Assembly: GCA_965224085.1 (NCBI GenBank)
Contig: CBDCYI010000004.1
Location: 1,440,001 to 1,504,000 of the forward strand
DNA: 64,000 nt
Reading direction: 5' to 3'
Source: Candidatus Marinacidobacterales bacterium
GTDB lineage: Bacteria; Acidobacteriota; Vicinamibacteria; Marinacidobacterales; SMYC01
Of the stretch, positions 41,755-45,492 are shown in pieces (positions within the stretch are counted from its first letter, which is position 1; each line of letters starts with the position of its first letter). The notes below the pieces were generated by a model. It had not been told where the DNA came from. It did no database searches and worked only from the letters and a program-made list of their open reading frames with translations. The position numbers and the translations under genes were made by a program.

Positions 41755-42048
41755 ATAATATCAGGGCGACGTTCTGAGAAGCGCCCAACCCGTCGTCGGG
41801 ATGTATGGGGCGTAGCTCAACTGGCCCGCGGGGCGCGTGGTCTCGGTCCGGCTGCAAACAAAGCGTTGGGATGATGCCGAACAGCAGGCCGGCCAGCAGC
41901 GTCCGCTCGCCTCATTGGTTCGCGGCCGCGCGTTGATGCCGCCGCCAACAACGGCGCTCGTTTCTGTCATTCGAAAAATGAGTACGGCAGGAACTGAAAT
42001 CCCGCTTCCGAGGTTGATTCTCTCTTCTAAGACCGCTAGATTTGGCCG

Positions 42049-42118
42049 ATGGCTCTCCTCGCCGGAACGCGCCTAGGCCCCTACGAGATTCTTGGGCCGA
42101 TAGGTGCGGGGGGTATGG
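42049..42118 (+). pseudogene. Hanks-type Ser/Thr kinase, first 23 codons, disrupted by IS110
   Basis: MALLAGTRLGPYEILGPIGAGGM then IS sequence. Confidence 0.88.
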
Positions 42119-42133
42119 ACTCCCCACGCCGGA

Positions 42134-43429
42134 TCAAGAGAAAACCTTCTTCGTAGGAATCATCGTCGATTCGCTTTTTGTTGTGGACGACCGCGAGGGG
42201 TCGTAAAGAGTTCTTTGTCGAAGCATCGCCATGGCGATGGGTAGAATGCGGTCCATGACGCCTCTGAGAGCTCTGGCATGGCTGTGGCCCGCGTCGCGAA
42301 GCCGATCGTAGTGCTTTTTAAAGTGTGGGTCGCGAAGCACGGCAGTGCTGGCCCAATGATGGAGAGCGTTATTGAGGGGCAAAGAGCGAGCTCTCCTCAT
42401 CAGGATAGTTGGTCGCAACTGACCGCGCTTGCCGCTTTTTTTCGTGACGGGTGCGATGCCGCTGAGAGTCCTGAAGGCTTTGAGATTTCGTAGCCGAATG
42501 GGGTCGTGGGCATAGCAGAGCACGGAGGCGAGCACGTAAGCACCGACGCCGGGCAAAGAGGCAAGAATGGCAGCGTCGGAGCACTGCTTGTCGTTTAGTG
42601 CTTGCAAGCGCTTGAACCACTTCTCGAGATGCTGGTCGGAGGCACGACGATGTTGTCGAACGAGGAGCAACTGCTGAAGGAGCAGTTCGAGATGCTCAGA
42701 AGTAGCTTTGGTGGTTGCATGCGCGACTCGGAGTGGTTTTTGATTGAGGGTATCGAGGATCTGCTCGGGTTTTACGCGTCGGATGCGGTGTTTTTTAACG
42801 AGCGTCTCGATGGTGTGGCGGCTAAGAGAGTTGGGGCTGGATTCGAAGAAGAGTTTTAGGAGCTCGCAGAAAAACGCGTCGAGAGCCTTATTCTTTGGCG
42901 CGAGCGAGACGAGGTGAGGCCAACAACGAGTAAGGAGTTCTCGGATCTGCGAGCTGAGGGCAACGTGGTTTTTGACAAGTTGGTCGCGGGTGCTCAACAG
43001 CCCGCGCATAGCAAGGATCTCCGGAGGTGGAAGTTGCAAGCGCTGAAAGCGGTGACCGTCGGTTCTGAGCGAATCGGCGAGAACGAAGGCGTCGCGCCGA
43101 TCATCCTTGGCGCCGCTCATAGAATGCCGGTCGCGGAAACGGTCGACCTGCTTGGGATTGATGGAGAAAATGGCGATGGCGTTGTCAAGAAAGAGCTCGA
43201 CGACGGCTCCATGAGGCTTTTCGATCGCCACTGCGATGCGCTCGGTGTCTTGCGTGGTCAGTTCCAGAAGCCAGCCGATCGTTTCTGAAAGTCCTTCGCG
43301 GCTATGAGGAAAGCCGCGCTCCCCCATAAATTGTCCCCTGGTATCGACCACGCTGGCCAAGTGAAGCCATTGGCCCAGGTCGACACCGACGAAGAAGTCG
43401 TAGTCGAGCTGATTCCTGGAAGAACTCAT
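42134..43429 (-). CDS. IS110-family DEDD recombinase/transposase
   Basis: VGVDLG, AIEKP, AKDDRRDA (DEDD), LPGVG, SGIAPVTKKSGK (catalytic Ser), no internal stops. Confidence 0.95.
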   Translation of the reverse strand: MSSSRNQLDYDFFVGVDLGQWLHLASVVDTRGQFMGERGFPHSREGLSETIGWLLELTTQDTERIAVAIEKPHGAVVELFLDNAIAIFSINPKQVDRFRDRHSMSGAKDDRRDAFVLADSLRTDGHRFQRLQLPPPEILAMRGLLSTRDQLVKNHVALSSQIRELLTRCWPHLVSLAPKNKALDAFFCELLKLFFESSPNSLSRHTIETLVKKHRIRRVKPEQILDTLNQKPLRVAHATTKATSEHLELLLQQLLLVRQHRRASDQHLEKWFKRLQALNDKQCSDAAILASLPGVGAYVLASVLCYAHDPIRLRNLKAFRTLSGIAPVTKKSGKRGQLRPTILMRRARSLPLNNALHHWASTAVLRDPHFKKHYDRLRDAGHSHARALRGVMDRILPIAMAMLRQRTLYDPSRSSTTKSESTMIPTKKVFS

Positions 43430-43443
43430 TGCCGTCAGCGCAT

Positions 43444-43637
43444 GTGATGTTTCATCGGCCCCTGTACCGGCGCTCGAAGCGCAACTCCCCATTGGATGTC
43501 CATCACAAGAAAATTGCCGGCACGCGTGTCCATACCGGGCGCTCGGAGCGCAGGGCGAAGTATGGCGTTGCCGGCAAGCTGCTGACGAAATCGAAAATAG
43601 TTCAAGCTCATCGTGAGATTTGCTCTACCACTGAGCT
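43444..43637 (-). ncRNA. IS110 bridge RNA (5' stem-loop, target-binding loop, donor-binding loop)
   Basis: 5' stem 43605-43637; target loop 43514-43577 capped by gcgct-ccg-agcgc; donor loop 43444-43506 capped by gcgct-tcg-agcgc; loop strands match the observed junction. Confidence 0.85.
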
Positions 43638-45492
43638 CTCGCCTTCGACGAGCTCCATACAGATGGATGCCGAGATCGTGGATGGTGATGATATTCGGGT
43701 GGTTGAGCGCGGCAGCCGCGCGGGCTTCCTGAAGAAGCTGATCGCGTGCGGTGGGATCGCGCGCGAGCTTGGACGAAAGCACTTTGTAAGCGAGCGGTCG
43801 GCTCAAGAGCCTATCGAACGCGCGATAAACTTCGCCCATCCCGCCTTTGCCGATTAGCCCGTCGAGATTGTAACGGTTGCCGTTGAGTGCACCCTCGTCG
43901 CTGCTGCTCTTACCCTCGACGAGCATCCCGTTAAAGGAGCTTTCTCGCTGCTTTTCTTCTTCGATTTTCTCGAGTAGTCGGGCGTGCCGTTGGTCGACAT
44001 CCGCATAATTGTAGGAGACGGCCATGATGTTTCGCAGAAGCTCCTCGGCACGCTTCAGCTCTCCGATATCTTCGAGAGCTTCCGCGAGCGGATCCCAGAG
44101 CGCGAGATTCTCCGCATCGACGTTTCGTCCCGCGAGCACGGCTTCGAGGCGCTCGACGGCCATCGAGCCCCAGCCGCGACGGATGAATGCGCGGGCGAGG
44201 ATGACGACGGCTTCGTTGTAGCGCGCGTCTTCCTTTGGCACCTGTTGGAGATATTGAAGCATCTCGCGTTCAGCATTTGCTTCGGAAGCTGCCTGCGCGG
44301 CTTCGTAGAAACGTTCGACCAGCGCGAAAAGAACGGCGGCTTTGTCGAAGACGCCGAGCTTGAGATAGAGCTCGGCCGCCCGCTCGCGTTCGCCCGCGCG
44401 CTCGAAATAGAGAGCGGCCTTGTTGTCGAGACCCGCGCGTGCCGCCGCCTCCGCGGCCAGCGGCCACGCTTCCACCGCCTCCCAACATTCAGTGGCACGT
44501 TCGAACCGTCCGCTCCGATCGAAGAGCTCCGCCGCCGCCATGGTATCGCCGGAGCGCATGAGGGCGTCCCCCGCAGCCTCCTCGTTGCCGTCGTCGAGGT
44601 GATACTCGGCTTCGAGCTTCGCCGCACGCAGGTCGTCGCCCGCACGGGCGTACATTTTCGCGGCCTTTTTATTGTTCTTTACTTCTTGATAGAGCTCGGC
44701 CGCCCGGGCGAACCGCTCTAGTTGCTCGCACAGCTTAGCTGCTTGTTCGTAGCGTTCGGCCCGCACGAGCACCTCGACCGCTTCGTCTTTCTGCTCGGCC
44801 TTTTCGAAGAAGTGGGCCGCCCCACGGGCCGCCGTGTCGAGCTCGGTGCGTTGTTGTGGCGGGAGGTAGCCATCACGTGTGAGCTCCGCGACCCGAGCCG
44901 CATAGAGTGCTGCGGCCCGGGTGAAGTCTCCGACCTTCGCGTAGGAGGCGGCGGCCTCGCGGATACGCCCGCTTTTCTCGTAAATCTCGCCGGCCGTCAG
45001 GAAATCGCCATGTCTCTGATAGCACTCGGCGGCTTTGAGGAAGAGCCCTACTTTCGCAAAGAGCTCGCCCGCGAGCGCGAGCTCGCCGATCTCTTCGAGG
45101 AGCCCGGCGGCTTGCTGCGATTTACCTTCGTTTTCATAGAGGTCGGCGCCCCGACGCACTTCACCGGCGTCGACGAAAGCAGCGGCCGCATCGACGTTAT
45201 GTCCGGCTTCGAGGAAAGCAAGGGCAGCCTTCTGGTCCTCTCCCAGCTTCCGATAGAGGCTCGCTGCTTGATCCGGCTAGCGCGCCCGCATGTAGTGGGA
45301 CGCCGCAAGGTCTTCGCGGTTCAACTCGAGGGCCAGCTCGGCGCACTTCGCGTACTCGTCGGCTTTCTCGTAGTAGTCGATGGCGAAATAGAGCTCGCCG
45401 AGCTCTTCGTAGAGCTCACCCGCCCGCACGAAATCGCCGGATTTGACGGCTTTTTCAGCGAGTGTTCTCGGGTTCTTGCGAAGCAGCGGCAT
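43635..45492 (-). pseudogene. TPR/SNAP-like helical repeats + Ser/Thr kinase, frameshifted and truncated at IS110
   Basis: AAxLYExxG repeats; IGKGGMGEVY, AYKVL, EARAAAALNHPNI, CMELVEGES then IS. Confidence 0.8.

Follow-up and report, generated by a model that had tools for sequence, protein, structure and literature searches.

In a 64,000-nucleotide stretch of an acidobacterial genome (here called the window; positions 1,440,001 to 1,504,000 of the forward strand of contig CBDCYI010000004.1, assembly GCA_965224085.1, “Candidatus Marinacidobacterales bacterium”), we found part of an insertion sequence (IS) of the IS110 group. Based on comparison of its copies, guides, and insertion sites, we conclude that this element probably (roughly 85% by our estimate) works like IS621, using a bridge RNA addressed to the glycine-loop codons of kinase genes, and that the copy in the window is truncated and non-autonomous.

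In the mechanism that we propose, an RNA encoded just upstream of the recombinase gene would fold into a target-binding and a donor-binding loop. The donor loop would pair with the joined element ends, tggggagt-CC-tgtac (predicted donor, tggggagtCCtgtac), and the target loop with ACTTCGC-CC-ATACC (predicted target, ACTTCGCCCATACC), the antisense of GGT ATG GGC GAA GT, which encodes the residues G-M-G-E-V of Hanks-type Ser/Thr kinases. A recombinase with DEDD and Ser motifs would exchange strands at the CC core, and the element would enter antisense to the kinase gene and without duplication. The glycine loop may serve as a multi-copy landing pad, as the repetitive extragenic palindromic (REP) sequences do for IS621, and insertions would destroy kinase genes; we counted 56 Pkinase-domain matches in the genome. 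The window copy retains the RNA region, recombinase gene, and right junction; it would be unable to form a donor site itself and may at most supply RNA and enzyme in trans.

Copies of the element and their ends

The host genome (G000; 6.87 Mb in 12 contigs) carries element DNA at 12 loci. Full-length copies measure 2,620 to 2,650 bp, starting with CC/TGTACGCTTGC and finishing with GGCGTGGGGAGT/CC (slashes mark element boundaries). Family A copies are 99 to 100% like the window copy and comprise, besides it, the full-length L003, L002 without its first 263 bp, and a left fragment at C9:747939. Family B, ∼90% like the window copy, comprises the full-length L004, L005, L006, and L007, the internally deleted L008 and L011, and the fragments L009 and L010. 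The right end, from the stop codon of the recombinase (42136-42134) to the core, is only 15 nt long and the left end is ∼1.3 kb, a layout typical of the IS110 group as opposed to IS1111.

The original prediction, made from the letters of the window, had derived the donor tggggagt-CC-tgtac from the second loop of the RNA. We found it at 9/9 left ends (CC/TGTACGC) and 11/11 right ends (GGGGAGT/CC-AT) in the genome. The left donor guide (LDG) is identical to the final 8 nt of the right end (8/8), and the right donor guide (RDG) matches, as its reverse complement, the CC+TGTAC of the left end (7/7). By a uniform-base estimate, the chance of encountering an 8-mer and two 7-mers of this kind all within 194 nt is 4e-7. 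Because the window lacks the left end that loop 2 foretold, we count this match as a successful blind prediction, and it is the strongest single argument for loop 2 as the donor-binding loop.

Guide variants and flanks

All four guide words lie exactly where they had been placed, and the two near-identical loop caps are present (Table 1). Across four variants of the RNA, two of them from relatives in other genomes (L046 and L020), the left target guide (LTG) reads acttcgccc (family A), acgtcgccc (family B), acctctccc (L046), or acttcaccc (L020), and the right target guide (RTG) reads ggtatgg (family A), ggaatgg (family B and L046), or gggatgg (L020), while LDG and RDG do not vary. Variation in the target guides coincides with third codon positions, at Gly, Gly, and Glu/Asp of G-M-G-E/D-V. 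Consistent with the predicted covariation between loop strands and flanks, the RTG versions ggTatgg, ggAatgg, and ggGatgg (A, B, and L020) pair with the flanks ccatAcc, ccatTcc, and ccatCcc, respectively.

Mismatches between the right target half-site (RT) and the guide of the same element numbered 0, 0, and 1 in family A, 0, 0, 0, 2, 1, 1, and 2 in family B, and 0 in L020; those of the left target half-site (LT) numbered 1 or 2 in 8/11 cases and 6 or 7 in the other 3. In total, mismatches to the own guide occurred at 37 of 132 positions, compared to a mean of 41.5 when family labels were permuted (fraction at or below the observed value, 0.034; 20,000 trials). With four guide sets only, the support from this permutation is modest.

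Insertion sites in kinase genes

Kinase glycine loops hold 8 of the 14 insertion loci in the host genome (the window copy, L002, L003, L004, L006, L008, a scar at C11:655213, and the C9:747939 fragment), and all of these insertions run antisense to the kinase. The CC-AT flank of the right ends corresponds to ATG G on the opposite strand, on which the flanks read ..YEILGPIGAGGM/ (window), ..YEVGSAIGVGGM/ (L002), ..EKLGAGGM/GVVYRAKDTRLNRIVAYKML (L003), ..SPVGKGGM/GEVYKAKDTRLDRTVAIKVL (L004), ..EKIGQCGM/GDVYLAQDTKLGRRVALKVL (L006), and ..SSLGSGGM/GDVYRAK.. (L008), and the C9:747939 fragment adjoins GEVYRAR... In the window, the flank is indeed a kinase gene cut at GAGGM, as had been read from the sequence. 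At L003, L004, and C11:655213, the Pkinase match begins precisely at the left end, with profile position 13, just past the glycine loop. The remaining kinase calls are based on a weak Pfam match (L006, 22.3 bits), on an orthologue (window), or on the motif only (L002, L008, and C9:747939). One exact family A site is still unoccupied, in a kinase gene at C5:176697.

The scar at C11:655190-655240 lies in an otherwise intact kinase gene (Pkinase profile 13-251), in which 8 nt of the left end, CCTGTACG, replace ∼10 nt of the glycine loop; it looks like the imprecise loss of an element. A further kinase match starting at profile position 13, at C4:438341, was considered as a junction and rejected as an ordinary kinase.

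Related elements and empty sites in other genomes

A DNA search of the order gave matches in 7/55 genomes (the host genome counted), including a left end in G053 that adjoins GEVYRARDGKL... When 60 related loci from other species were searched by tblastn with three kinase domains, kinase genes appeared at the left end in only 2, L020 and L046, the two closest, indicating that the kinase habit is confined to a narrow clade. L020 (recombinase 61% identical) is inserted in IGAGGM/GEVYRARDTKLDRTVALKIL (GEVYRARD), has the termini CC/TGTACGC and GGGGAGT/CC, and matches its own RTG with its right flank at 5/5 positions. L046 (recombinase 85% identical) adjoins ../GEVYRARDGKLGRDVAIKVLP at its left end and lacks the right part, and GEVYRARDGKL.. 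adjoins the left end in both L046 and L086. Two more genomes (G046 and G048) contain right-end remnants at ..LGAGGM/, with the recombinase gene gone or reduced to a piece. The predicted target in the G-M-G-E-V codons of kinases thus held for 8/14 loci of the host genome and for L020, L046, and L086; the other 6/14 are not in kinases.

Empty sites were found for two of the interrupted kinases. The TPR-kinase interrupted by L003 has orthologues at 90 to 92% identity in all four same-genus genomes, and in three of them (G055, G053, and G054) the glycine loop is uninterrupted, reading ..GGCGCCGGCGGGATGGGCGTCGTCTATCGCGCC.. (GGCGGGATGGGCGTCGTCTAT; G054 has one extra G before GGGATGG). This empty site equals the L003 right flank plus one core plus the left flank, and it follows that there was no target duplication and that the crossover lies in CC/GG, as foreseen for a CC core. 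The orthologue of the window's cut kinase, in G056, is 89.6% identical over an alignment of 106 nt, which begins 37 nt before the ATG and reaches the junction, and encodes a 552-aa Pkinase protein (171.6 bits). The empty allele that had been forecast was recovered there at 13/14 positions, GGTATGGGCGAGGT (GGT GCG GGG GGT ATG GGC GAG GTC TAC); the wobble base of the Glu codon differs.

The recombinase

The recombinase comprises an N-terminal DEDD (RuvC-like) domain (PF01548; E 6.1e-30, profile 1-155 of 155) and a C-terminal Tnp domain (PF02371; E 2.7e-11, profile 2-86 of 87), and it scores 161.8 bits against NF033542, “IS110 family RNA-guided transposase” (cut-off 140). It aligns distantly with the IS621 transposase (8wt6; E 4e-7) over the Asp/Glu positions and the C-terminal Ser-Gly, placing the conserved Ser of “kkSGk” opposite “yeSGs.” The D, E, D, and D positions align with those of IS621. 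The reading frame in the window is intact, and its product is 100% identical to that of L003.

Weighing of the explanations

Several observations weigh against a bridge RNA with this specificity. The predicted fold was obtained as the minimum-energy structure of 43633-43440 (a 5' hairpin and two internal-loop hairpins, with the caps in each); its energy proved ordinary (z = -0.80; 43/200 shuffles fold as well), and for that reason the fold alone is no evidence. A search of Rfam with 42000-43800, at E values up to 1, gave no match. Given the ordinary energy and this null result, the case rests on what the loops match and not on the fold. RNAalifold on the 4 variants kept the first hairpin with 1 compensatory pair and folded the second differently; the guide variants number four, and the compensatory stem pairs seen number one. 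The window copy has no left terminus. Six of the 14 loci lie outside kinases: L005, L007, L009, L010, L011, and a right-end fragment next to L002 in inverted orientation. Their sites resemble the kinase target, as in ..PLGGM/G.., and that frame is mostly not open.

Further points on the same side concern target pairing and expression. LT position 6 is mismatched in both L020 and L046, and the left flanks of L007, L010, and L011 mismatch the guide at 6 or 7 of 7 positions. Among unoccupied sites with ≤2 mismatches from the 14-nt targets, a kinase pattern flagged only 5/82 (family A) and 4/107 (family B), so that 14-nt pairing alone does not explain the kinase bias. Public sequencing runs gave 20 rows with part of the stretch, one from a run on record as RNA (X17) and one from a run guessed to be RNA (X16). 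Contigs from both are 90 to 95% like parts of the recombinase gene, and X17 does not cover 43462-43603; such contigs cannot show transcription, as DNA may be present in these libraries. Separately, a simple promoter scan of 42000-44000 returned 0 sigma-70-like sites and 3 terminator-like sites, no more of the latter than in shuffles. A circle junction, read from the two ends, would offer TTGATC-17 nt-TACGCT, a weak promoter match (4/6 and 3/6) that would lie ∼1.1 kb upstream of the RNA.

Some of these points have candidate explanations. The kinase bias may have arisen because the loss of redundant kinases is tolerated and insertions elsewhere are purged; alternatively, the best kinase sites may by now be exhausted, or recognition may extend beyond the modelled pairing. 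The unrelated left flanks of L007, L010, and L011, beside acceptable right halves, recall the “half-match” insertions of IS621 described in a preprint (bioRxiv 10.64898/2026.08.31.748434); later rearrangement would account for them equally well.

One alternative is that the recombinase protein itself recognises the site and that the matches between loops and flanks are chance or a by-product. The donor words never vary, and hence show no covariation, the permutation test is modest, and the fold is undistinguished (z-score, -0.8), all of which this account would accommodate. It would have to attribute to coincidence three exact 7- to 8-nt words in the expected loop strands, as well as RTG variants T, A, and G that go with flanks A, T, and C. 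The protein, moreover, belongs to a family in which RNA guidance was shown for IS621 (PMC11208160). We consider recognition by protein alone quite unlikely. Even harder to sustain is an inherited association, in which one old insertion was copied by kinase gene duplication. The kinase genes do form a paralogous family, as their many Pkinase matches indicate, and several flanks are alike; yet the left part is identical among the four intact copies of family B, while the host kinases differ strongly, with N-terminal kinase and TPR-kinase architectures, which indicates independent insertions. The orthologous locus of L003 is uninterrupted in 3/4 sister genomes, which contradicts common inheritance, and insertions also occurred at non-kinase look-alike sites.

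The window copy might also have been domesticated, with read-through from the TPR-kinase gene driving the RNA and recombinase and the host switching or rearranging its kinase genes. In keeping with this, the host's open frame (45159..43435) enters the RNA region on the same strand, the recombinase frame is intact and identical to that of L003, and a near-cognate target lies in the opposite orientation 1.7 kb away. However, the guides do not specify the site of the left junction, and the gene upstream of the copy is broken. In the four runs examined, the guide sites showed neither an inversion nor an alternative joint, and the genome holds several other degraded element fragments, which fits decay. 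Domestication therefore seems to us improbable, and an IS621-like element guided to kinase glycine loops, with a truncated copy in the window, is the reading that we retain.

Comparison to known systems

In IS621, as described by Durrant et al. 2024 (PMC11208160), left guides base-pair to the bottom strand and right guides to the top strand; all four pairings include the core, and REP sequences serve as natural targets. Based on the features compared, the element described here appears to fit this scheme in every one: it has both protein domains, a putative RNA upstream of the recombinase gene whose predicted fold has a 5' hairpin and two internal-loop hairpins, left guides that read as the top strand, right guides that are reverse complements, a 2-nt core overlap, insertion with no duplication, a long non-coding left end, and a very short right end. 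It differs from IS621 in its core (CC instead of CT), in its target (a coding motif of a gene family instead of REP), in its ∼1.3-kb left end with two open reading frames (ORFs) between terminus and RNA, and in its distant protein (E 4e-7); any promoter at the circle junction would lie ∼1.1 kb from the RNA. A non-CT core had been put forward as a distinctive trait, and CC is borne out by all ends. The natural guides in the IS621 paper were filtered for CT cores (PMC11208160), which suggests that other cores occur in the family, so that this trait carries little weight.

Most knowledge of bridge-RNA recombinases comes from IS621 and a few relatives with non-coding repeat targets, and work by Hiraizumi et al. 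in 2024 reportedly also treats IS621 and its bridge RNA. ISPpu10 and other REP-targeting IS110 elements, IS4321/IS5075 (Tn21 terminal repeats), and attC-targeting IS1111 elements are each aimed at a short, multiply repeated sequence, and what they hit is either a non-coding repeat or the terminus of another mobile element. Here, in contrast, the repeat exists through protein conservation, and insertion inactivates a gene. In being addressed by the most conserved codons, this selfish element resembles group II introns and homing endonuclease genes; unlike group II introns, which sit in the sense strand and can splice out, the IS110 element is antisense, is not spliced, and leaves the gene lost.

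We thus describe what appears to be a natural bridge RNA that has as its address the most conserved codons in a large family of signalling genes, the evidence consisting of real insertions, empty sites, and guide variants. As a natural example it bears on how elements of this kind locate many sites within one genome, how guides drift along synonymous codon space, and what the host pays, with several kinase genes destroyed. It also provides a distant CC-core orthologue with defined donor and target and a conserved Cys-rich accessory ORF that has no counterpart in IS621. Our literature search gave no paper on kinase-directed IS110 elements or group II introns; target-motif tables in the supplement of PMC11208160, which lay outside that search, could hold cases unremarked.

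A group II intron at the same codons

The fourth same-genus genome, G056, has a different element (L155:261-3795; G056:C1:876160-879694) inserted at the same point (ATGG/G..) of its orthologue of L003's kinase, with further copies at L156-L171 and 3' ends at L176-L180. We classify it as a group II intron from its Rfam matches (group-II-D1D4-6, E 9e-10, and Intron_gpII, E 0.003, both below gathering scores, the latter ending exactly at the 3' boundary); it carries an RVT_1 ORF (E 5e-32) and a nested DDE transposase gene. Intron matches numbered 17 in G056, 4 in G055, and 0 in the host genome. Their 5' flanks end in ATG in 16/16 cases, 12 or 13 of which read as kinase loops (e.g., ..YEILEPIGKGGM), and 3' flanks continue as (G)EVYRA..VAIKVLP or the like in 5/6. 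Judging from these flanks, the intron occupies kinase genes in sense orientation at ATG G/GN, the spot of the IS110 core; the same codons are thus used by a second RNA-guided element that is unrelated to the first.

We lean toward the view that the glycine-loop codons are a shared homing address in this genus for two unrelated RNA-guided elements, the IS110 element in antisense and the group II intron in sense. Bridge guides would diversify at wobble positions, with lineages addressing synonymous versions of the motif, and selfish elements would prune the kinase repertoire, as suggested by the at least 8 loci hit in this genome, and could exert codon-level pressure on a catalytic motif. The intron at these codons suggests that RNA-guided mobile elements have a general niche in the conserved motifs of expanded families.

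The copy in the window

The window copy (Table 1) had been thought to extend to 43637. Homology to the other copies in fact starts at 43633, where internal position 1090 of the element, at the ORF2 stop codon, is joined to a broken TPR-kinase gene on the same strand. We consider the copy to be a 5'-truncated, non-autonomous fragment of the 2.6-kb element, its first 1,089 bp gone; contigs of two DNA runs (X1 and X2) extend past 43633 into a full-length left part, like the other copies. In the simplest account, a deletion took the left 1.09 kb together with neighbouring DNA. This account agrees with the search for the rest of the window's cut kinase, in which tblastn with the G056 orthologue against the host genome gave at best 70 to 80% partial matches; the missing half was probably deleted. 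The left-end fragment at C9:747939 was considered as that missing half and rejected, as its flank is another kinase.

The open frame of the TPR-kinase remnant (45159..43435) continues through the RNA region and ends at 43435. At 43655-43670, the remnant has lost ∼8 codons between ..HPNIITIHDL and MELVEGES and has acquired a frameshift. It was either a prior pseudogene or damaged in the same event as the element truncation.

Table 1. Features of the truncated element copy and its flanks, in window positions
Feature	Position	Strand	Details and basis
Ser/Thr kinase 5' fragment	42049..42117	+	23 codons, MALLAGTRLGPYEILGPIGAGGM, cut after the glycine-loop Met codon; antisense to element
Right target half-site (RT)	42112..42116	-	atacc (42116-42112), exact complement of the right target guide
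Core dinucleotide, putative crossover site	42117..42118	-	CC (42118-42117); ends of all copies and single copy in empty sites
Right terminus of element, left donor half (LD)	42119..42126	-	tggggagt (42126-42119)
IS110-family recombinase gene	42134..43432	-	432 aa, open; PF01548, PF02371, NF033542, IS621 8wt6 alignment
Donor-binding hairpin of putative bridge RNA	43443..43507	-	LDG tggggagt 43491-43484; RDG gtacagg 43467-43461; cap gcgcttcgagcgc
Target-binding hairpin of putative bridge RNA	43514..43577	-	LTG acttcgccc 43561-43553; RTG ggtatgg 43536-43530; cap gcgctccgagcgc
5' stem-loop of putative bridge RNA	43584..43612	-	Minimum-energy fold
Truncation junction	43631..43633	-	Homology to full-length copies starts (position 1090 of 2,620); “cag” common to both partners
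TPR-kinase gene remnant	43634..45159	-	Strand as element; broken in kinase subdomain V; internal frameshift near 43660
Unoccupied near-cognate target	43829..43842	+	ACTTCGCCCATCCC, 1 mismatch; in glycine loop of TPR-kinase remnant; orientation opposite to element

Passenger ORFs and other observations

Two passenger ORFs lie between the left terminus and the RNA (L095:3016-4126, minus strand; same region in L003, L046, and L020). ORF1 has a Cys-rich core, C-x2-4-C .. C-x2-C .. CC-x-CG, that every kinase-seeking relative retains, L020 among them (37.6% identity over 119 aligned residues); it is frameshifted in L003. A homologue search returned 12 close relatives without names, and the AlphaFold model (mean predicted local distance difference test score, 50.1) is confident only at residues about 100-175. 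ORF2 encodes 138 aa and is absent from L020. For the two ORFs, Pfam gave no match and NCBIfam one below threshold, and their Atlas clusters are unnamed.

ORF2 homologues occur in 22/401 Acidobacteriota genomes sampled (the host genome and the unpublished G105 counted), many of them multi-copy. At 5/6 inspected loci, they stand directly downstream of a ∼250-aa ORF whose N terminus we take to be IstB-like (the IS21 helper). In an unrelated member of the Acidobacteriota (G220; L117:1516-3332), the ORF2 homologue is directly upstream of an intact kinase gene starting MALEPGSRLGPYEIVELRGKGGMGEVY, which may be chance; the ∼260-aa ORF ahead of this homologue is presumably IstB-like as well.

At G000:C11:766919-766953 (L002/L015), a 35-bp inverted right-end fragment abuts internal position 264 of L002, with the outer flank CC-ATTCC; it is probably the leftover of a rearrangement between two copies. 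A loose pattern scan of the host genome additionally picked up at least 3 other repeat families with identical 45-nt flanks (∼22, 9, and 6 copies; e.g., C4:394936, C5:1921, and C11:257708), which are other multi-copy elements.

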